Positions 44,545 through 55,522 of a stretch of 64,000 nt of DNA are shown in pieces (the first letter of the stretch is position 1; every line of letters begins with the position of its first letter). The stretch covers positions 416,001-480,000 of the forward strand of contig JANRKS010000019.1 of assembly GCA_033763315.1 (NCBI GenBank), in the 5' to 3' direction. The DNA comes from Deltaproteobacteria bacterium. GTDB taxonomy: Bacteria; Myxococcota_A; Polyangia; Fen-1088. The notes under the pieces were generated by a model. The model worked only from the letters and a program-made list of their open reading frames with translations. It made no database searches and was not told the DNA's origin. The position numbers were made by a program, and so were the translations under genes.

Positions 44545-44619
<75 letters not shown>

Positions 44620-44782
44620 GTTTGTCTGCCGGAAGCCGTGCATCTCTGCGCGCCCGGCGCAATCTGGAGGCCCGCCTGCAGGCCAATTTGGGTGCTATGT
44701 TGGTCCACCCTTTACCGAATCCCTATATGCTTGACCTCAATATGCCGATGCACGGCATCCCTCTGTCGAAAAAGTAGAGCGC

Positions 44783-45478
44783 ATGAACATTAGAAGGCGA
44801 CCGTTTCCCGAGCGAAGGACTGATGATAACCACCGTGTGGGGCGAAGAATCCGCGTACCTGAAGTTCGCGTGATCGGTGCGGATGGCAAGCAAGTAGGCG
44901 TTATCCCCACGCATGAAGCGCTCTCGATGGCGGATGCCCTGGGCCTTGAGTTGGTTGAGGTCGATCCGCGCGCCAAGCCGCCGGTGTGCCGCATCTTGGA
45001 CTACGGCAAGTTCAAGTACGAGACGTCGAAGAAGGAAAAGGCTTCACGCAAACACCAAAGCACCGTGGTGGTCAAAGAGATCAAGCTGCGCCCGAAGACG
45101 GACACGCACGATTTCGAGTTCAAGCTTAACCACATCAAGCGGTTCTTGGGTGAAGGCAACAAGTGCAAGTTGGTGGTCGTGTTCCGCGGCCGCGAGATCG
45201 TTCACCCTGAAACCGGTGAAGCGATGTTGAGCAACGTTTTGGCTGCGTTGGGTGACTACGCGCAAATCGAACAGCGGCCGTCGTTGGAAGGCAAGCGCAT
45301 GGTCATGATCATCGGACCCAAGGCTGGCGTCATCCGTCCGCGACCGGTGGCACCTGCCCCTGGTCCTGCTGGCGTTGCTGGGCCCGCAGCGGCTGCCCCC
45401 GCACCTGCCGGGGCGCCCGCGTCGTCGGCCGCCGCGCCCTCGGCGCCACCCGCGCCTGGCCCTGGCCGCCCTGCGTAA
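44783..45478 (+). CDS. infC: Translation initiation factor IF-3 with Pro/Ala-rich C-terminal extension
   Basis: IRVPEVRVI, PPVCRILDYGKFKYE, FRGRE. Confidence 0.97.
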   Translation: MNIRRRPFPERRTDDNHRVGRRIRVPEVRVIGADGKQVGVIPTHEALSMADALGLELVEVDPRAKPPVCRILDYGKFKYETSKKEKASRKHQSTVVVKEIKLRPKTDTHDFEFKLNHIKRFLGEGNKCKLVVVFRGREIVHPETGEAMLSNVLAALGDYAQIEQRPSLEGKRMVMIIGPKAGVIRPRPVAPAPGPAGVAGPAAAAPAPAGAPASSAAAPSAPPAPGPGRPA

Positions 45479-45520
45479 CTAAAAAACCCACCGAACCAGC
45501 GATTTTGCAACGCAAAAGTG

Positions 45521-45548
45521 TTGCATGCGGTCGCCGGGTCTATATACT
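45521..45548 (+). promoter_or_regulatory. Internal promoter for rpmI-rplT
   Basis: TTGCAT-16nt-TATACT, 11 nt before the ATG; no SD. Confidence 0.55.
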
Positions 45549-45559
45549 CCGCCGCTCTC

Positions 45560-45763
45560 ATGGCCAACTACAAGATGAAGACGAACAGCGGCGCCAAAAA
45601 GCGCTTCAAGCTGACTGCAAAGGGAAGGGTCAAGCGCAAACGGGCCAACCTGCGCCACAACCTGACCAGCAAGTCAGCCGAGCAAAAGCGGCGGCTGCGC
45701 AAAGGCGGATACATCGCCAAGTCACAAGAGCATCAAATCAAGGCGATGCTCCCCTACGGTTAA
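45560..45763 (+). CDS. rpmI: 50S ribosomal protein L35
   Basis: KMKTNSGAKKRFKLT. Confidence 0.96.
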   Translation: MANYKMKTNSGAKKRFKLTAKGRVKRKRANLRHNLTSKSAEQKRRLRKGGYIAKSQEHQIKAMLPYG

Positions 45764-45826
45764 TCTGATTGTGTCTCCAGCGTCTCTCGGAGATACGCAG
45801 CTACGGAATTAAAGGAATAGTAGCCA

Positions 45827-46177
45827 ATGCCTCGCGCTAAAGGTGGTTTTAAAACTCGTCGTCGTCGCAACCGCATATTGAAGCACGCCAAGGGCTTCCG
45901 CGGTGGACGTCATCGTTTGTGGAAGACGGCTGTTGAGGCCGTTCATCGCAAGTGGCGTTATGCCCTGTTTCACAGGCGGAAGAAGAAAGGCGACTTCCGC
46001 GCCTTGTGGATCGTGCGTATCAACGCCGTGGCTCGTGAGCTTGGCACAACGTACTCGCGCTTGATCGCTGGCCTCAAGAAGGCTGGCGTTGAATTGGATC
46101 GTAAGATTTTGGCCGATCTCGCTTTGACCGACCCCAATGCCTTTGCCAAGGTCGTTGAAGTCGCCAAGGCTGCGTAA
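45827..46177 (+). CDS. rplT: 50S ribosomal protein L20
   Basis: [28 protein letters not shown]. Confidence 0.98.
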
Positions 46178-46227
46178 GCCCCCGATTCATTCCCATCGCG
46201 ACTGGCCCAACGCCAGACGCCGAAAGA

Positions 46228-46261
46228 AACGCGGAGCCCAGTCTTGGGTCTCCGCGTTTTT
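46228..46261 (+). terminator. Intrinsic terminator after rplT
   Basis: AAACGCGGAG-CCCA..TGGG-T-CTCCGCGTTTTT. Confidence 0.8.
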
Positions 46262-46318
46262 GGTTTTAAAGTCGCAACGCTTCGCTAACGCCGTGAAGGC
46301 TTCAGAAAAAGGTGTGCC

Positions 46319-47392
46319 GTGAGCACAGAGGGCGCCGCCAACGTAGAGCCATTGATTGCAGAGCTGCGGCAGATACCTGCGGCTTTTGCCGCGGAAATCG
46401 CAGGTCTCGTGACGGAACCCGAGATCCGCGCCGTGCAATCAAAGTTCCTGGGCAAGAAGGGACGCCTCGCGGAAGTGATGAAGCTGCTCGGGCGCCTCTC
46501 GGCCGAAGATCGCCCCAAAGTGGGCGCCGCCGCGAACGACACCCGTTCGGAGATGGAAAAGGCTATCGAGGAACGTTTGGCCGCCGTTGAGGACGCAGCG
46601 TTGGCAGGAGACTTGGCTCGCTCGGTGGATGTGACTTTGCCGCCACGAGGGCAGGGGATCGGCACTTTGCATCCGCTCACCTTGGTGCGCCTTGAGATTG
46701 AACAAGTGTTCGCACGCATGGGCTTCGAGGTGCGTACAGGGCCGTGGGTCGAGTCGGAGTGGAATAACTTCGACGCTCTCAACACCCCTGCGGATCACCC
46801 CGCGCGCGACATGCAGGATACTTTCTTCGTCGAAGGCGGGTTGGTGCTGCGTTCGCACACGTCCCCGGTGCAGATCCGCACCATGCTGGCAGGGCCGCCA
46901 CCCGTGCGCATCATCGCGCCCGGCAACGTCTTTCGGCGCGACGACGACGCCACCCACACGCCGATGTTCCCTCAGGTCGAAGGGCTGGAAGTGGGTCCCA
47001 ACGTTAGTTTCGCGGATCTCAAAGGCACCTTGCTTGATTTCGTTGGCCGCTTCTTTGGTCCAGGCACGCGCATTCGCTTGCGCCCCAGCTTCTTTCCCTT
47101 CACAGAGCCTTCGGCCGAGCTGGATGCCAGTTGCTTTAAGTGCGATGGCAAAGATGGCTCGTGCCGGCTGTGTAAAGGCACGGGCTGGGTTGAGATCGGC
47201 GGCTGCGGGATGGTGCATCCGAACGTGTTCAAGCACGTGGGATACGACCCGCAGCAGGTCACGGGCTACGCGTTCGGCATGGGGCTCTCCCGCATGGCGA
47301 TGCTGAAATATGAAATTTCGGATCTGCGCTTGTTCTACGACAACGACGTGCGGTTCCTTCAACAATTTTCTCAATCGTTATCGCAAGCTTAG
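46319..47392 (+). CDS. pheS: Phenylalanine--tRNA ligase alpha subunit
   Basis: HPARDMQDTF, FFPFTEPS, GYAFGMG. Confidence 0.98.
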   Translation: MSTEGAANVEPLIAELRQIPAAFAAEIAGLVTEPEIRAVQSKFLGKKGRLAEVMKLLGRLSAEDRPKVGAAANDTRSEMEKAIEERLAAVEDAALAGDLARSVDVTLPPRGQGIGTLHPLTLVRLEIEQVFARMGFEVRTGPWVESEWNNFDALNTPADHPARDMQDTFFVEGGLVLRSHTSPVQIRTMLAGPPPVRIIAPGNVFRRDDDATHTPMFPQVEGLEVGPNVSFADLKGTLLDFVGRFFGPGTRIRLRPSFFPFTEPSAELDASCFKCDGKDGSCRLCKGTGWVEIGGCGMVHPNVFKHVGYDPQQVTGYAFGMGLSRMAMLKYEISDLRLFYDNDVRFLQQFSQSLSQA

Positions 47393-47401
47393 AGGCCCAT
47401 C

Positions 47402-49819
47402 GTGAGAATTTCCTTTAACTGGCTGCGCGATTTTTTGCCCACGCTTCCCCGCGACCCTGTGCAGGTCGCGGCCGATCTGACGCGCCTCGGGTTTGAGGTT
47501 GAGGGCACCACGCATCTGGGCCGTGGGTTGTCGGGCTTGTTGGTGGCCGAAGTGCTTGCCTATAGGCCTCACCCGCAGGCCAGCAAACTTCGCATCGTTA
47601 CGGTGAAGGCCGGCGCGCGCACGGACGAAGTTGTGTGTGGCGCGGCCAATGTTCCCGAGCCAGGTGGCAAAGTTTGCTGGGCGCCCCCAGGGGCCACGTT
47701 GCCTGGGTTCACGATGGCGGCGAAGGAGATTCGCGGCGTGATGTCGCCTGGCATGTTGTGCAGCGAGGAAGAGCTGGGTCTCGCGCCAAGCGCCGACGGG
47801 ATCTTGATCTTGGACGCCGATGCGCCCTCCGGTGCTGATCCGGTTTCTACGTTTGGCTTGGCCGATACAGTTTTCGAGGTGAACGTCACGCCCAACCGGG
47901 GCGACGCGCTTTCGCATCTCGGTCTAGCGCGCGAACTTGCCGCGGCCTACAGCGCGGAATTGGTCATGCCTGCGACCCCCGCGTTGAAGGTGGGCGCAGG
48001 CGCCCAAGCCTTGGACGTAGTGATCCAAGACAACAAGGCCTGCCGGCGCTACCAGGCCCGTTTCTTTGCAAACGTCGTTGTTGGTCCCAGCCCACTCGCC
48101 ATGCGGATGCGTTTGTTGGCCTGCGGTGTGCGTTCGATATCGAACCTTGTCGACATCACAAACTACGTGCTTCTGGAGCTGGGGCACCCACTGCATGCCT
48201 TCGACCTGGATAAGGTCAAAGGTGCCGTTTACGTGCGGCGCGCCCATCCCGGCGAGCGATTGGTTACGCTCGATGGCGTTGAGCGCGTGCTCGAAGCTGG
48301 CGACACGGTCATTGCTGACGAGCAAAGCCCCATTGCCTTGGCCGGCGTCATGGGAGGCCAATCGACAGAAATCGGGCCCAACACGAAGAACGTGTTGCTT
48401 GAGACGGCCACATTCGATCCCGTGAGCGTGCGCAAGACAGCCAAGCGCTTGTCGCTGCATAGCGAAGCTTCGCACCGCTTTGAGCGTGGCGTGGATTCTG
48501 AGGGCATTGCACGCGCAGCCGCAAGGGCCGCTGAATTGATTTGCGGTTTGGCGCAAGCGCAACAGGCGGATCAAGTTGTGGATCGCTATCCTTCGCCGCC
48601 CACGCGCCGACAGGCCTCATTAACGTTGGCCACGCTTCGCAAGCTTTCGGGCGACACAAACCGAAACCTCGAAGGCGCCAAGCGAACCTTGTCGCGGCTG
48701 TGCGACGAAGTGCGTATCACGGGCCACGGCGACAGCGCGCGTTTGGATCTGGGGATTCCGTCGTACCGGCCCGACCTCAGCATGGAAGCCGATCTGGTGG
48801 AAGAGGTGCTGCGGCACGAAGGCTACGAAAGCGTCGTTCCCCGCCGTATGATTTTCAACGCCAAGGCCGCGCCGAACCCCGAAGCGCCGAGCGATCTGGC
48901 GCGCGCACGTTTCGTCTCCGCGGGGCTCAACGAAGTTGTGACCTGGGGCTTCGTGCCGTCGGGGTGGCTCTCGGCCTTGGCTCCTGCCGCGCCCGAAGCG
49001 CATCAACGCTTGGTCCGCGGGTTGGCCGTGTCCAATCCTATATCCGCCGACTACGAAGTCATGCGCACCTCTTTGTTGCCCGGATTGGTGGAGACGGCGA
49101 AGCGCAACCTTTCGCGTGGCGTTCAAAGCCTTGCGTTGTTCGAGGTGGGGCCTGTGGTTGAGCGCGCGGAACAGGCCGGCCATGTGACGGCTGCACAGCA
49201 AAACCACGCCTCAGCGCTGTTGTGCGGTTTGCAACCCGGGTGGCTGCGGCCCGGCGCAGCCGTCGATTTCTTTGACCTCAAACGCGTCGCCGCCGCGGTG
49301 CTTGCGGGCTTCGCCTTGCAGGACGCGCGCTACGTCCCTGTCAGTGACGTGCCGTTCTTGCATCCTGGCGTGGGGGCCTCGATCGAAGTGCAGGGGCAGC
49401 GGGTGGGCTTGTTGGGTGAACTGCACCCTCGCACGCGCAAAGCCCTGCGGCTGACCGAGACGGCCTTTTACCTCGAGCTTTACCTCGACCAATTTCCGGC
49501 CGCTGCAGCCGCGATCCACCCGATCCTGCCTCCGCGGTATCCAGCCACGACGCGTGACATCTCGTTCTGGGTGGATGAAAGCGTCACCGCCCAAGCACAA
49601 CAGGATGCGTTGTGGTCCACGCCGTCGCCGCTGCTTCGCGCGGTATCCGTGCTTGAGGATTTCCGCGATCCGAAATATGTGCCCGCCAAAAAGAAGGGCA
49701 TGCTGTGGACGCTCACGTACCGCGCGGACGACCGCACACTCACGGATGCCGAAGTGGATGCCGCGCACGCTGGCGTGCTGGCCGCCTTACAAGCGGCTTT
49801 CCCACTGCAACTGCGGTGA
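47402..49819 (+). CDS. pheT: Phenylalanine--tRNA ligase beta subunit
   Basis: VCGAANV, TPNRGD, RFERGVD, RTLTD. Confidence 0.98.
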   Translation: MRISFNWLRDFLPTLPRDPVQVAADLTRLGFEVEGTTHLGRGLSGLLVAEVLAYRPHPQASKLRIVTVKAGARTDEVVCGAANVPEPGGKVCWAPPGATLPGFTMAAKEIRGVMSPGMLCSEEELGLAPSADGILILDADAPSGADPVSTFGLADTVFEVNVTPNRGDALSHLGLARELAAAYSAELVMPATPALKVGAGAQALDVVIQDNKACRRYQARFFANVVVGPSPLAMRMRLLACGVRSISNLVDITNYVLLELGHPLHAFDLDKVKGAVYVRRAHPGERLVTLDGVERVLEAGDTVIADEQSPIALAGVMGGQSTEIGPNTKNVLLETATFDPVSVRKTAKRLSLHSEASHRFERGVDSEGIARAAARAAELICGLAQAQQADQVVDRYPSPPTRRQASLTLATLRKLSGDTNRNLEGAKRTLSRLCDEVRITGHGDSARLDLGIPSYRPDLSMEADLVEEVLRHEGYESVVPRRMIFNAKAAPNPEAPSDLARARFVSAGLNEVVTWGFVPSGWLSALAPAAPEAHQRLVRGLAVSNPISADYEVMRTSLLPGLVETAKRNLSRGVQSLALFEVGPVVERAEQAGHVTAAQQNHASALLCGLQPGWLRPGAAVDFFDLKRVAAAVLAGFALQDARYVPVSDVPFLHPGVGASIEVQGQRVGLLGELHPRTRKALRLTETAFYLELYLDQFPAAAAAIHPILPPRYPATTRDISFWVDESVTAQAQQDALWSTPSPLLRAVSVLEDFRDPKYVPAKKKGMLWTLTYRADDRTLTDAEVDAAHAGVLAALQAAFPLQLR

Positions 49820-50796: not shown

Positions 50797-51594
50797 TTGC
50801 AACAGCGACCGCTTATCCTGCTCAGCAATGACGATGGGATAGGAGCGCCGGGGCTCGCAGCCTTGATAGCGGCGGTAGAGGATCTGGGTGACGTCATCGT
50901 TGCCGCTCCCGATCGCGAGCGCAGCGCCGCCAGCCATTCGATCACGCTCAACAGCCCTTTGCGTGTTGATGAGATTGCGCCTCAGCGTTACGCGATTGAT
51001 GGCACGCCCGTGGATTGCATCTACATCGCGGCCCTGCACTTGGCGCCGCGCAAACCGGCGCTTTGCATCTCGGGCATCAACGACGGCTTCAATCTCGGCT
51101 CAGACGTGTTCTATTCGGGCACTGTGGCCGCGGCCGTGGAAGCCACCTTGCGAGGCATTCCTTCAATCGCCGTTTCAGGGGAGCGGCAGCGGCCGCATGA
51201 TTTTGCCGCGGGCGCGGCGTTTGTGCGTGAGCTGGCGGCCGAGACGCTGGCCCGCGGGCAAAAGCAATCGCCGTTTCCCGAGGGCGCGTTGTTGAATGTG
51301 AACATTCCTGCGGGCGCGCTGTCAGGTTACCAAGTGACCTTTCTCGGCCGGCGTGTGTACCGCGATCAGGTGGACGTTCGCGCCGATCTGCGCGGCCGTT
51401 CGTATTATTGGATCGGCGGCCCGGAAGAAAAGGCCACGGATCTGCCGGGGAGCGATTGCAGCGCCGTGCAAAGTGGCGTGGCTTCGGTGACGCCGTTGGC
51501 CTTGGATCTCACGCACGGTGCCTTGCTGCGCGATCTGCAGTCTTGGGACGTGGGCACGTTTGTCCGCGCCGCCACCACGCACGAAAAACCTTAA
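50797..51594 (+). CDS. surE: 5'/3'-nucleotidase SurE
   Basis: ILLSNDDG, GTPVDC, SGIN, YSGTVAAA. Confidence 0.96.
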   Translation: MQQRPLILLSNDDGIGAPGLAALIAAVEDLGDVIVAAPDRERSAASHSITLNSPLRVDEIAPQRYAIDGTPVDCIYIAALHLAPRKPALCISGINDGFNLGSDVFYSGTVAAAVEATLRGIPSIAVSGERQRPHDFAAGAAFVRELAAETLARGQKQSPFPEGALLNVNIPAGALSGYQVTFLGRRVYRDQVDVRADLRGRSYYWIGGPEEKATDLPGSDCSAVQSGVASVTPLALDLTHGALLRDLQSWDVGTFVRAATTHEKP

Positions 51595-51601
51595 GGCAAA
51601 C

Positions 51602-52354
51602 ATGTTACGCGCGTCGCTGCTGTGGGTTTTGGGCTTGGCGTTGGCGACGAGCGGTTGTGGTGGCAGCTGGCCTTACTGGCCATGGTCGCCGTCTGACAAG
51701 CCGCTGCACGCGGAGCCGCCGCCCGGCACGTGGCACGTGGTCAAAGAAGGCGAAACGTTGGCCACGCTGTCAGAGAAGGCCGCCGTGCCGGTGGAAGATC
51801 TGCGCGAGATCAATGGCCTTGCGAAAGGCCAAGAGCCCAAAGCCGGGCAGCTGCTGTTCTTGTTGGGCCCCGACAAACACGAACAAACCAAAATCGTGGG
51901 CGCCACCGAGGTCCCCCGCCGCGGGCCCGGCAGCGTCACGAACACCGAGCACCGGCCGCAGGCGCGCGAAGATGGGCGCTTGGCTTGGCCCGTGGCGCGG
52001 CCGCTGGTGTCATCAACGTTTGGTGATCGCTGGGGCCGGCATCACGAGGGCATCGATCTGTCAGCGCCGTTGGGCACCGCTGTGTTCGCGGCCGACGATG
52101 GCGTGGTGATCTACTCAGACAACCTGCTCTCGGGCTACGGCAACATGATCATCATCGAACACCGGGGCGGGCTGCTGACCGCGTACGCGCACAATTCGGT
52201 GTTGATGGCTCAACGAGGCGACAAGGTGCGCCGCGGCCAGCCCATCGCCCGCGTGGGGCAAAGCGGCCGTGCCACGGCGCCTCACCTGCATTTTGAGGTG
52301 CGCCTGGGCGACGAGCCGCGCGATCCAATGCAGTTTCTGCCGCCGCTAAAGTGA
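51602..52354 (+). CDS. LysM plus M23 peptidase lipoprotein (NlpD-like)
   Basis: TSGC lipobox; HVVKEGETL; HEGID, YAH, HLHFE. Confidence 0.9.
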   Translation: MLRASLLWVLGLALATSGCGGSWPYWPWSPSDKPLHAEPPPGTWHVVKEGETLATLSEKAAVPVEDLREINGLAKGQEPKAGQLLFLLGPDKHEQTKIVGATEVPRRGPGSVTNTEHRPQAREDGRLAWPVARPLVSSTFGDRWGRHHEGIDLSAPLGTAVFAADDGVVIYSDNLLSGYGNMIIIEHRGGLLTAYAHNSVLMAQRGDKVRRGQPIARVGQSGRATAPHLHFEVRLGDEPRDPMQFLPPLK

Positions 52355-52411: not shown

Positions 52412-54382
52412 TTACTTCGACCAAGGCCCCATCGTGGACACCAGCGTTTCGAGCGACATTTCGCCCAACTCGCCCTTGTCGCGCGAGCGAACGTTGATGC
52501 TGTTGTTGGCTTGTTCTTTTTCGCCAACCACGATCACCAACGGCAGCTTCTGCAAGCTGGCGTCGCGAATTTTGTAACCCACACGATCGTCGCTGAGGTT
52601 CACTTCGGCACGGATGCCTTGGTCCAACAACTTGTTGTGGATCTCGCGCGCGTACCCGATGAACTTTTCGCTGATGGGGATCACCAACGCCTGCACAGGC
52701 GACAGCCATAAGGGGAAGGCGCCCGCGTAGTTTTCGATGATGATGCCCAAGAAGCGCTCAATGCTGCCGTAGCAAGCACGGTGCAACATCACAGGCGTGT
52801 GCTTTTGCCCATCGGCCCCGATGTACGTCAAACCAAAGCGCTGCGGCATCGAGAAATCAAGCTGAATGGTGCCGCATTGCCATGAGCGCTTGAGAACGTC
52901 CCGGATGTGAAAGTCGATCTTCGGCCCATAGAACGCACCGTCGCCGGGGTTCAGCTGGTACTCGACCTGCTTTTCATCCAGGGCTTCTTTGAGCGCCGTC
53001 TCGGCCTTGTTCCACATCTCATCGGTGCCCAAGCTCTTGGCCGGGCGCGTGGACAATTCAAGCCGCACGTCCGTGAGATCAAAGGTGCCATAAACCTCGC
53101 GGAAGAAATCGATGAGCATCGAGATCTCCGACTTGATCTGATCGATCGTACAGAAGTGGTGCGCGTCGTCCTGCGTGAAGGCTTGCACGCGGAACAACCC
53201 GTGCCGTACGCCCGAAAGCTCACGACGGTGTACCAGCCCCATCTCGGCGATGCGCAACGGGAACTGGTTGTGCGAGTGCATGTGCGTTCGGTAGGTGATC
53301 AAGTGGCCCGGGCAGTTCATGGGCTTGACCGCCATCGGCCGATCTTCTTCAACGTTGTCGCGCACCTTTTCCGGGTTGGCCGGATCGCGCAGCTTCAACT
53401 TCGTGAAGAACATGTTCTCAAGGTAATTGTCGTAGTGGCCGGACGTGTGCCACAGCTCCTCGCTCAATACGAGGGGCGTTTTGACCTCCATATAGCCGCG
53501 GCGGCGCAACAGTTTGCGCATGTAATCCGTCAGCGTCGTGAACAGCGTGGTGCCGCGCGGATGGAAAAACGGAAAGCCTGGGGCCTCGTCGTGAAAGCTG
53601 AATAGATCCAGCTTCTCGCCCAAAAGCCTGTGATCGCGCTTCTTTGCTTCTTCAAGGACGTGCAGGTATTCCTTGAGATCGTTCTTATCGAAGAACGCCG
53701 TGCCATACACGCGCGTGAGCTGCTCACGGTTGGCGTCTGCGCGCCAATACGAACCGCCCGTCTTCGTGAGCTTCGTGTTCTTCAGCCACCCCGTGTGCGG
53801 CACGTGCGGACCGCGACACAAATCGATGAAATCGCCGTGCTTGTAGAACGTCAGCTCTTCGCCACGCCCCTTGATGTCGCCGACAATCTCTTGCTTGAAT
53901 TTGTTGTTGCCACCATCAATCGCGCGGTAGCGGGCGAAGTGCTCGTTCGCCTCGTCGTAGCTGGAAACACAGCGCACAAACGGCGCGTTGCCGTCGGCGA
54001 TCTTCTGCATCTCTTCTTCGATGCGGGGCAAATCGTCGGGCGAGATCTTCCCCTCGGGCAAAAAGATGTCGTAGTAAAAGCCGTCTTCGATCACCGGACC
54101 GATCGTCAACTGCGCCTTCGGATAAAGCCGCAAAATGGCATCGGCCATCAAGTGGGCCGCGGAGTGCCGCAGCACTTCCAGGGCTTCGGCGTCGCGCTTG
54201 GTGAGCAAGGCCACCTCGGCGCCATTGGGCAGCGCGCGCTGCAGATCCACCACCGTGCCGTTGACCTTGGCGGCCACGGCGGCCTTGGCCAGGCCTGGTC
54301 CAATGCTGGCAGCCAAATCGGCGGCGCTCGCACCATCGGCCAGATCCCGGGCCGACCCATCGGGAAGTTTCACACTGATCAT
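52412..54382 (-). CDS. thrS: Threonine--tRNA ligase
   Basis: RHSAAH, DLCRGPH, KPMNCPGH, GAFYGPKID, QCGTIQLDF. Confidence 0.99.
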   Translation of the reverse strand: MISVKLPDGSARDLADGASAADLAASIGPGLAKAAVAAKVNGTVVDLQRALPNGAEVALLTKRDAEALEVLRHSAAHLMADAILRLYPKAQLTIGPVIEDGFYYDIFLPEGKISPDDLPRIEEEMQKIADGNAPFVRCVSSYDEANEHFARYRAIDGGNNKFKQEIVGDIKGRGEELTFYKHGDFIDLCRGPHVPHTGWLKNTKLTKTGGSYWRADANREQLTRVYGTAFFDKNDLKEYLHVLEEAKKRDHRLLGEKLDLFSFHDEAPGFPFFHPRGTTLFTTLTDYMRKLLRRRGYMEVKTPLVLSEELWHTSGHYDNYLENMFFTKLKLRDPANPEKVRDNVEEDRPMAVKPMNCPGHLITYRTHMHSHNQFPLRIAEMGLVHRRELSGVRHGLFRVQAFTQDDAHHFCTIDQIKSEISMLIDFFREVYGTFDLTDVRLELSTRPAKSLGTDEMWNKAETALKEALDEKQVEYQLNPGDGAFYGPKIDFHIRDVLKRSWQCGTIQLDFSMPQRFGLTYIGADGQKHTPVMLHRACYGSIERFLGIIIENYAGAFPLWLSPVQALVIPISEKFIGYAREIHNKLLDQGIRAEVNLSDDRVGYKIRDASLQKLPLVIVVGEKEQANNSINVRSRDKGELGEMSLETLVSTMGPWSK

Positions 54383-54397
54383 GTTTTTCTCCTGTGT

Positions 54398-54457
54398 GCG
54401 AGACGGATACCCCCGAACTCGCGGTTGTTAAAGGCAGACCGGATACTGCCGGCTGCC
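54398..54457 (-). promoter_or_regulatory. Twin-hairpin thrS leader, candidate tRNA-Thr anticodon mimic
   Basis: GGCAG-CCGG-CAGUAU-CCGG-U-CUGCC and GCGAG-UU-CGG-GGGUAU-CCG-U-CUCGC, 4 nt before SD AGGAG. Confidence 0.6.
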
Positions 54458-54506
54458 GACGTTCAAAATGCCGTGACTTGCCCCAGTCGTCAAGGCACAC
54501 ACGCGG

Positions 54507-54989
54507 CTACGCAGGGGCAGGGGATGTCACATCCCGCTTCACAAGCGCGCCGCCCGCGGTTTCGATAATGAAGGTCACCGGGCCATCGTTGGCCAAAGTG
54601 ACCAGCATATCGGCGCCAAATCGGCCGGTTTGAACATGCACGCCGGCCCCGCGCAGCTGCGACACAAACAGCTCATAAAGCGCATTGGCCCGCTCGGGCG
54701 CTTCTGCGCTGTCGAAGCTCGGTCGGTTGCCCTTATACAGCCGACCCACAAGTGTAAATTGGCTGACGGCCAACACCTCGCCGTTGACGTCCTTGATGGT
54801 GAGGTCCATAGGCGTTTTCCCCGCGAACATGCGCAGCGCCACAAGTTTGCGAACCGTGGCCTCAACGTCGGCTTCCGTGTCGCCCCGAGCCACGCCCACC
54901 AAAACCATCAGACCGTGGCCGATGCGGCCCACCACCTCGTCGCCCACCGTCACCTGGGCGTGCTGCACCCGTTGGACCACGGAAATCAT
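54507..54989 (-). CDS. dtd: D-aminoacyl-tRNA deacylase
   Basis: VVQRV, VSQFTL, GNRPSF, NDGPVT. Confidence 0.96.
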   Translation of the reverse strand: MISVVQRVQHAQVTVGDEVVGRIGHGLMVLVGVARGDTEADVEATVRKLVALRMFAGKTPMDLTIKDVNGEVLAVSQFTLVGRLYKGNRPSFDSAEAPERANALYELFVSQLRGAGVHVQTGRFGADMLVTLANDGPVTFIIETAGGALVKRDVTSPAPA

Positions 54990-55522
54990 CGCGCGCCCTC
55001 ACGTGGCTGCCCGAACACCTTGCACCACAGGTCATCGGCCGCGCTTTCTAAGCCGGGTTGCAAAGCGGGCAGAGCGCTGAACACGTCTTTGATTCCCTGG
55101 TCGATGAGCTGGCGCATGGGTGCAGGTAGGTCTGGTGGCAATTCATCTTCGTCAAGCACTTCGGGTGAAGCGCCTGGGCGGCACAAAACGTCTAACTCCA
55201 GGTCGTGCCACTGCAACGCATCGGCCGAAATGGTGGTTTCGTGGGCAATGTTGAAATAGTGGGCCAAGGTGGTGCCGGTGGGGGTGAGCCAATGGTAAAC
55301 GTTGTAAAGGCGGTCGCGCCAAAAATGCCCAAAGGTCACGGTGCCCGTGGGCAGGTCAATGTCAGCCACGCGCATGGGGCGGTCGGAAATGAAAAGCACG
55401 GTGACATTTGTTTCGTTACCGTCCAACCGCTGGCACGTAAACACCTTGTGCTGACCTTGCAAGGTAATCTTGGTTTCGACGATCGTGCTGAACGGTTTGG
55501 CGATATCGTGAGACGAAGCCAC
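54986..55522 (-). CDS. DUF402 family protein
   Basis: YNV..YFNIA..DLELDV..VLDEDE. Confidence 0.8.
   Translation of the reverse strand: MASSHDIAKPFSTIVETKITLQGQHKVFTCQRLDGNETNVTVLFISDRPMRVADIDLPTGTVTFGHFWRDRLYNVYHWLTPTGTTLAHYFNIAHETTISADALQWHDLELDVLCRPGASPEVLDEDELPPDLPAPMRQLIDQGIKDVFSALPALQPGLESAADDLWCKVFGQPREGAR

Follow-up and report, generated by a model that had tools for sequence, protein, structure and literature searches.

The window analysed here is a stretch of 64,000 nucleotides (nt) from a Deltaproteobacteria bacterium (GenBank assembly GCA_033763315.1, contig JANRKS010000019.1, positions 416,001 to 480,000 of the forward strand). Its minus strand carries thrS, the gene for threonyl-tRNA synthetase (ThrRS), preceded by a leader of about 75 nt with two hairpins whose loops display threonine anticodon triplets. 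An earlier reading of the same letters (hereafter, the original prediction) had proposed that this leader is an autoregulatory operator imitating the anticodon arm of tRNA-Thr, and all the leader elements that it described on the minus strand are there, exact to the base (Table 1). The encoded enzyme matches Escherichia coli ThrRS (1QF6) over its full length (E 9.5e-181), and both the anticodon-binding and the N-terminal domains are present according to Pfam. As the gene that comes next, for an M23/LysM peptidase, is convergent, thrS is monocistronic.

Table 1. Features of the thrS leader and its surroundings in the window (positions counted from the first letter of the window).
Feature	Position	Strand	Description
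thrS-dtd spacer	124 nt	-	Holds the -35/-10-like hexamers, hairpins A and B, and the Shine-Dalgarno sequence
Possible -35 hexamer	54488..54493	-	TTGACG; invariant in G000, G014 and G019
Possible -10 hexamer	54465..54470	-	CATTTT; 17 nt after TTGACG and 7 nt before hairpin A
Hairpin A (distal)	54433..54457	-	25 nt, GGCAG-CCGG[CAGUAU]CCGG-U-CUGCC, loop with AGU; analogue of E. coli domain 4
Linker	54423..54432	-	UUUAACAACC; 10 nt, A/U-rich, unpaired in predicted folds
Hairpin B (Shine-Dalgarno-proximal)	54398..54422	-	25 nt, GCGAG-UU-CGG[GGGUAU]CCG-U-CUCGC, loop with GGU; analogue of E. coli domain 2
Shine-Dalgarno sequence	54389..54393	-	AGGAG; 6 nt before the ATG at 54382, unpaired in the predicted fold
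thrS	52412..54382	-	656-aa threonyl-tRNA synthetase; Pfam TGS, tRNA_SAD, class II core and HGTP_anticodon
M23/LysM peptidase gene	51491..52354	convergent	Downstream of thrS
dtd	54507..54989	-	D-Tyr-tRNA deacylase (Pfam Tyr_Deacylase); upstream neighbour, outside the element
Empty ancestral thrS slot	44545..45478	+	tRNA-Val(GAC) at 44545-44619, then directly infC-rpmI-rplT-pheS-pheT

Hairpin B is separated from the Shine-Dalgarno (SD) sequence by the four nucleotides ACAC. In an unconstrained fold of the 81-nt leader, the minimum free energy (MFE) structure and the centroid are the same: both consist of hairpins A and B with the SD free (-28.9 kcal/mol; z -2.30, with 4 of 200 shuffled sequences folding equally well). 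With 20 flanking bases added, z is only -1.76 and 12 of 200 shuffles are equal to it. Regarding the promoter TTGACG-17-CATTTT that had been suggested in front of the hairpins, its sequence and spacing stand but its strength does not, since CATTTT equals TATAAT at only 3 of 6 positions and a consensus scan called no promoter-like site at the thrS leader. GCATTTT and TTGACG are both kept in the related genome G014, and G019 keeps them partly (TTGACG, GCATTCC). If the putative -10 hexamer is real, the 5' end of the mRNA would fall at about 54458, right at hairpin A.

The evidence that bears most on the leader comes from its relatives. The ThrRS protein was searched against kin genomes, against one genome per species and against metagenome contigs. 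Among the matches listed, from which the loci of the per-species and metagenome scans were taken, a group of enzymes is 71-89% identical to that of the window, and the next matches reach at most 52%. At least 19 distinct thrS loci of this group have upstream sequence. Their 19 leaders (G000, G014, G019, L031-L037, L112-L114, L192-L196 and L198) were compared, leaving out L197, a duplicate of L035, and L115, which is without its 5' end. The ThrRS of these 19 loci form one clade in a FastTree phylogeny of 195 ThrRS sequences (support 100), and the 15 clade members sampled in an IQ-TREE quick tree of 66 sequences are monophyletic as well (100 in the Shimodaira-Hasegawa-like approximate likelihood ratio test, SH-aLRT).

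Both hairpins, with NGU loops (N being any base), occur upstream of thrS in 19 of 19 distinct clade leaders. Stems covary and GU is invariant, so that the conservation which the original prediction had left to be looked for in relatives is in fact found there. The loop of hairpin B begins 27-36 nt before the ATG in all leaders but one. The stems themselves are varied (CCGG/CCGG, GUCGG/CCGAC, CGGUGG/CCACCG, GGAUGG/CCAUCC), and those of the A+T-rich L037 (CUAG-A-GCC/GGC-C-CUAG and UUGAGAUGA/UUAUCUCGA) have almost no sequence in common with the others. The A/U-rich linker is limited to G000, G014, G019, L032 and L037, while elsewhere the linker is short and G+C-rich.

Covariation was assessed in several alignments. 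A covariance model built from 5 leaders (R1) was used to align more of them, and a second model from 13 leaders (R2) yielded an alignment of 15 rows. There, 91.7% of 241 cells are standard pairs, compared with 35-44% once the 3' partners have been shifted by 1-3 columns; changes on both sides are found in 8 of 17 pairs, and the covariation score was reached by none of 500 shuffles. Most of this signal comes from helix A (both-side changes in 6 of its 8 model pairs, compared to 2 of 9 for helix B), helix B being strongly conserved in sequence in the model alignment (GCG-A-GGRCGG / CCGUCC-CGC). A count anchored on the loops of the 19 rows gives (i) for helix A, 108 paired cells out of 114 and both-side changes in 6 of 6 pairs; and (ii) for helix B, 106 out of 114 and 4 of 6 pairs, values matched by at most 1 of 1000 shuffles. 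From a plain MAFFT alignment, RNAalifold recovered helix B (8 pairs, 5 with double changes) and missed helix A because the 6- and 7-nt loops are out of register. MAFFT alignments of the hairpins alone were unusable for pair counts, for which the model-guided and loop-anchored ones were used instead, both of them structure-informed and thus leaning towards the structure.

The two hairpins also resemble each other. The core GRCGG[loop]CCGUC is common to both, and the 3' loop bases can be the same in A and B (UU/UU in L196; AG/AG in L036 and L198; AU/AU in G000 and L031), a resemblance that could reflect duplication or else co-adaptation to the cognate enzyme. In addition, the long linkers of L194, L196 and L112 (296-312) have an extra small hairpin in common, GGGYMCARCGUUGGCCC, whose loop has CGU shifted by one base from the anticodon register. 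This hairpin is possibly a degenerate third mimic, or else a module that serves as spacer.

As for the loops, 24 of the 38 in the clade have 7 nt and 14 have 6 nt. The 6-nt loops noted in the original prediction are therefore correct for the window and do not hold as a general feature. With tRNA numbering, position 34 is A in 9 loops, G in 13, C in 11 and U in 5; positions 35-36 are GU in 38 of 38; and position 37 is mostly A (29 loops), otherwise G (5) or U (4). The rule by which loops were picked required GU, yet these two columns do not vary in the MAFFT and model alignments either, which were made without that rule. A free position 34 followed by fixed G35 and U36 is the degeneracy of the threonine anticodon box (NGU). 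For E. coli ThrRS, the anticodon determinants that matter most are G35 and U36. The three tRNA-Thr genes of this genome (UGU, GGU and CGU) have loops of the form UU-NGU-AA. Passages of a published account describe the threonine anticodon nucleotides as identity elements for ThrRS (PMC9976931).

Hairpins of this kind might arise without any function in a G+C-rich intergenic region, and part of the evidence looks that way. A single hairpin passing our own rule (at most -10 kcal/mol, a loop of 6-7 nt, and GU in the place of anticodon positions 35-36) occurs in 186 of 3000 random 130-nt segments of this genome; the short pattern CGG-N2-3-GU-D-N-CCG has 856 matches in the genome versus about 984 expected from base composition, so that this single-hairpin regular expression is not specific; and the folding z scores are modest. 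Two rule-passing hairpins, in turn, are found in 4 of 3000 random segments, and two at the observed distances in 2 of 3000. This single genome is, on its own, suggestive and weakly above chance. The case for more than chance lies in the conservation across relatives: both hairpins are kept with compensatory changes in every clade leader, A+T-rich stems included, at loci that are not near-identical copies, as the ThrRS identities given above indicate. It is hardly conceivable that chance alone accounts for them.

The element is also specific to this thrS lineage. With R1, 8 held-out leaders score between E 1.3e-8 and 1.6e-3, L003, the thrS locus of G019, scores 0.024, and the window's own leader only E 3.4. 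With R2, the held-out L003 reaches E 3.5e-5 and the window leader 0.005. Both models miss L037 and match only parts of L112, L194 and L196. In 524 kb comprising the 64-kb window, the thrS region of E. coli and 98 thrS loci from outside the clade, R2 matched a single site, window 54396-54461 (minus strand, E 0.031); 76 more non-clade metagenome loci (L116-L191) were covered by the hairpin rule alone. Neither model matches the E. coli locus (L111) or any of the proteobacterial thrS loci that were scanned. On the whole 7.6-Mb genome, the thrS leader ranks first with R2. The second match (C9:135257-135311, E 1.27) was judged to be chance, being G+C-rich with open frames running through it. Each of four other carrier genomes, whose leaders are training rows of the model, has one R2 match, the thrS leader.

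No Rfam family was found in 53900-55000, where the only match was a chance snoRNA-like one at E 7. This negative says little, because Rfam is equally blank on the E. coli thrS leader and has no model of that operator. The leader is a well-supported addition to the known cis-regulatory RNA motifs, one for which Rfam has no entry.

In Firmicutes, thrS is controlled by T-boxes, as the original prediction had stated: Rfam T-boxes (RF00230) lie upstream of thrS in the Firmicute loci L071, L107 and L108, the last of which (Bacillus sp. SA1-12) has three of them in tandem (675-1439, bits 99.5-108.4). A leader that senses tRNA or attenuates transcription, of the T-box or the leader-peptide type, thus has a precedent at this gene. 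Nevertheless, the library that detects the Firmicute T-boxes gives no T-box match at E up to 10 in 53900-55000; the loops present anticodons (NGU) and not the ACN specifier codon; and the leader, at about 75 nt, is a third of a T-box. An intrinsic terminator or attenuator is ruled out in 54300-54700, where there are no terminator-like sites (a G+C-rich hairpin plus U-tract) and no U-tract follows the hairpins. A transcriptional leader of this sort is very unlikely here.

Another explanation takes the leader as a conserved 5' structure with no relation to ThrRS, which would protect the 5' end from decay or bind some other protein that recognizes NGU-A loops. Hairpin A would indeed be 5'-terminal, provided that the putative promoter is a true one, and the conservation of the GRCGG/CCGUC stem in both hairpins goes beyond what an anticodon loop needs, tRNA-Thr stems being different. 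On the other hand, a stability role leaves unexplained why G35 and U36 alone are fixed in both loops with 34 free, why the element is found before thrS only and why the distance from hairpin B to the start codon is fixed. We regard this explanation as improbable, although it deserves more weight than the transcriptional one.

What we consider likely, with reasonable confidence, is that the leader of about 75 nt works as a translational operator, with two hairpins that mimic the anticodon arm of tRNA-Thr and to which ThrRS would bind. The element has two conserved, covarying hairpins with NGU loops, belongs to one thrS lineage, and has neither terminator nor T-box. In the mechanism proposed, ThrRS in excess of uncharged tRNA-Thr would bind the two NGU loops as a dimer, through its two C-terminal anticodon-binding domains, and the enzyme sitting on hairpin B would sterically keep the 30S subunit from the ribosome-binding site, given that this hairpin ends 4 nt before the SD. 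Competition by tRNA-Thr for the same ThrRS sites would relieve repression, so that thrS translation would track the ratio of free enzyme to tRNA. In G000, G014 and G019, the A/U-rich linker could provide a split ribosome-binding site with its upstream half.

Several observations weigh against this operator reading. Regarding the window itself, (i) one extra G.U pair turns loop B into a GGUA tetraloop in the MFE structure; (ii) neither window loop has the 7 nt of a tRNA; (iii) its leader reaches a genome-wide E of 0.44 with R2, which is not significant; and (iv) the leader stems are unlike the anticodon stems of the three tRNA-Thr genes of the genome, and the leader has C or G and U where tRNA-Thr has U33 and A38. 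Because of these differences in the stems, mimicry would be restricted to the loop core, as in E. coli. Among relatives, L112 is an exception to the spacing rule: it has both NGU hairpins, but farther upstream (hairpin B is 66 nt before the ATG), and next to its SD there is a third hairpin without NGU (375-392, GCGCAG-GGCGA-CUGCGC). In some clade members linkers go down to 4-5 nt, which bears on whether one dimer can reach both loops. The covariation of helix B comes mostly from two or three divergent rows and, since rows are related and alignments structure-informed, the covariation figures overstate independence. Finally, of the 18 leaders that were folded, 15 have both hairpins in the MFE structure (L032 has both in the centroid only, L033 has A only and L195 neither), and by energy alone the leaders are unremarkable (z from +0.42 to -4.09).

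The original prediction had placed the operator in Myxococcota. The operator reading stands on the comparative evidence; as a trait of the phylum it does not, since this ThrRS lineage is patchy, occurring in 3 of 89 genomes of the window's family (in 0 of its 2 genus-mates) and in 8 of 401 sampled genomes of the phylum. Other carriers are metagenome-assembled genomes (MAGs) labelled, as deposited and unchecked, Pseudomonadota, Planctomycetota, Spirochaetales and Zetaproteobacteria. The three carriers of the family belong to three genera and have the promoter-leader-thrS unit in three different neighbourhoods: dtd lies upstream of thrS in the window only and not in G014 (L002) or G019 (L003), the upstream flanks do not align, and similarity begins at the TTGACG box.

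Family relatives have a resident thrS, about 48% identical, between tRNA-Val(GAC) and infC, and the same order is seen in G002, of the same genus (tRNA-Val, thrS as a 613-aa frame, infC). When the corresponding slot of the window (44545-49819, plus strand) was compared with that of L018 (1290-3951), it was found empty in the window, whose thrS is located 4.6 kb beyond pheT on the opposite strand. No second ThrRS was found in this genome, the completeness of which is 90.85%. With the tRNA-Val/infC slot empty here yet filled in genus- and family-mates, the window thrS is, judging by sequence and gene order, a xenologue: the resident gene was replaced by a foreign one carrying its own leader. The thrS gene plus its leader looks like a self-regulating transferred cassette.

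Regarding the origin of the element, the Proteobacteria group of the IQ-TREE phylogeny (25 rows) has 100 SH-aLRT and the ThrRS clade (15 rows) lies outside it, both groups being mutually exclusive. The clade groups at 92 with Firmicute, Desulfobacterales and Planctomycetota ThrRS types, which are without the element. The approximately unbiased test does not reject that the clade and the Proteobacteria group are sisters at a deeper level (p 0.369). In the same tree, the ThrRS of L103, a MAG labelled Prochlorococcaceae cyanobacterium, pairs with Halomonas (100 SH-aLRT), and that of L061, labelled Verrucomicrobiaceae, falls inside Gammaproteobacteria; these two placements point to transfer, mis-binning or mislabelling. 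Convergence with the E. coli operator, while not proven, is probably the more economical reading, because (i) there is no model match between them; (ii) the stem consensus is another; (iii) the element is compact; and (iv) its ThrRS lies outside the Proteobacteria group. A bolder proposal, to which we lend somewhat less than even credence, is that anticodon-arm mimicry arose a second time independently and that a promoter-operator-thrS cassette moves between lineages, phyla included, and can displace the resident thrS.

If these proposals are true, the mimicry solution would be general and probably convergent. Furthermore, the element would provide a minimal natural operator (about 60 nt) for structural and engineering work. 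A gene that brings its own feedback loop along would also make it understandable that an essential synthetase can be transferred and take the place of the resident copy with its dosage undisturbed.

The thrS operator of E. coli is the textbook example of translational control through molecular mimicry. The structure 1KOG is the complex of ThrRS with operator domain 2, and the N-terminal domains of ThrRS are required for ribosome exclusion. According to the passages available from published accounts, domains II and IV of the E. coli leader are hairpins resembling the anticodon arm of tRNA-Thr, they are bound by ThrRS and the 30S subunit is thereby excluded (PMC11088916, PMC9976931); moreover, according to another source, the operator stem-loop splits the ribosome-binding site, with a single-stranded enhancer upstream and the SD beyond (PMC7297116). 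The linker UUUAACAACC of the window is a possible analogue of domain 3, that is, of the upstream half of such a split site. In the literature searched, no report of a thrS operator outside E. coli was found, subscription journals, supplements and the original E. coli papers not being covered by that search. Other aminoacyl-tRNA synthetases, yeast AspRS among them, are described in excerpts of two sources as binding an anticodon-like stem-loop in their own mRNA (PMC7373986, PMC9976931). The yeast element is eukaryotic and involves a different enzyme and mechanism, and it can serve as an analogy only.

T-boxes share with the clade element the use of tRNA-Thr identity by a cis-acting RNA of the thrS leader to tune ThrRS synthesis. 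But a T-box binds the tRNA itself, shows a codon, exceeds 200 nt and works through antitermination of transcription, and the clade element shows none of these features.

When the hairpin rule was applied to 164 thrS upstream regions, an SD-proximal NGU hairpin (-20 to -45 from the ATG) was found at 18 of the 19 clade loci. Outside the clade, it was found in 13 of 29 Gammaproteobacteria, in 2 of 5 loci whose label says only Pseudomonadota and in 18 of 74 unlabelled metagenome loci, these last mostly with the gammaproteobacterial stem consensus. The rule found none in the 12 Betaproteobacteria, the 7 Bacilli or the other named groups of these 164 regions. A second NGU hairpin was found by the same rule in only 2 of the 29 gammaproteobacterial loci. 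Planctomycetota-type thrS leaders (L039, L116, L119, L121 and L125) have a conserved GG-N3-5-UAGUA-N-CGG in the last 30 nt before the ATG and also an upstream hairpin, possibly a different conserved leader.

The analogy with E. coli domains 2 and 4 drawn in the original prediction agrees in architecture and in distance to the start codon. Both operators occupy the 5' leader of thrS and run from a distal mimic hairpin through a single-stranded linker to an SD-proximal mimic hairpin, the SD and the AUG, with a threonine anticodon triplet followed by a purine in the loops. E. coli domain 2, as read here (GUGAUCU[UUCGUGU]GGGUCAC), has its loop about 35 nt before the AUG, compared to 27-36 nt in the clade. 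Since ThrRS is a dimer, two mimics suit its two subunits. The differences are likewise clear: (i) there is no sequence or profile similarity that could be found, R2 giving no match on the E. coli leader; (ii) the clade element takes about 75 nt with 25-nt hairpins and a linker of mostly 4-10 nt, whereas in E. coli the stretch extends over about 130 nt and its linker over about 26 nt; (iii) clade stems are G+C-rich with the common GRCGG/CCGUC core, unlike those of E. coli; (iv) the clade has 6-nt loops in the proportion given above, unlike the E. coli operator; (v) its ThrRS lineage differs from the E. coli type; and (vi) the window thrS is monocistronic without infC behind it, unlike that of E. 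coli. Other Gammaproteobacteria have, at -24 to -39, an SD-proximal hairpin whose loop YU-NGU-AN is of 7 nt (or 6 nt), for instance GUGGCCU[UUGGUAG]GGGUCAC, and share with E. coli the stem consensus GUGRYCY/GGRUCAC, which the clade is without. The leader is therefore best read as functionally alike to E. coli domains 4 and 2, but as a separate RNA family, more compact than the E. coli operator and moving together with its gene.

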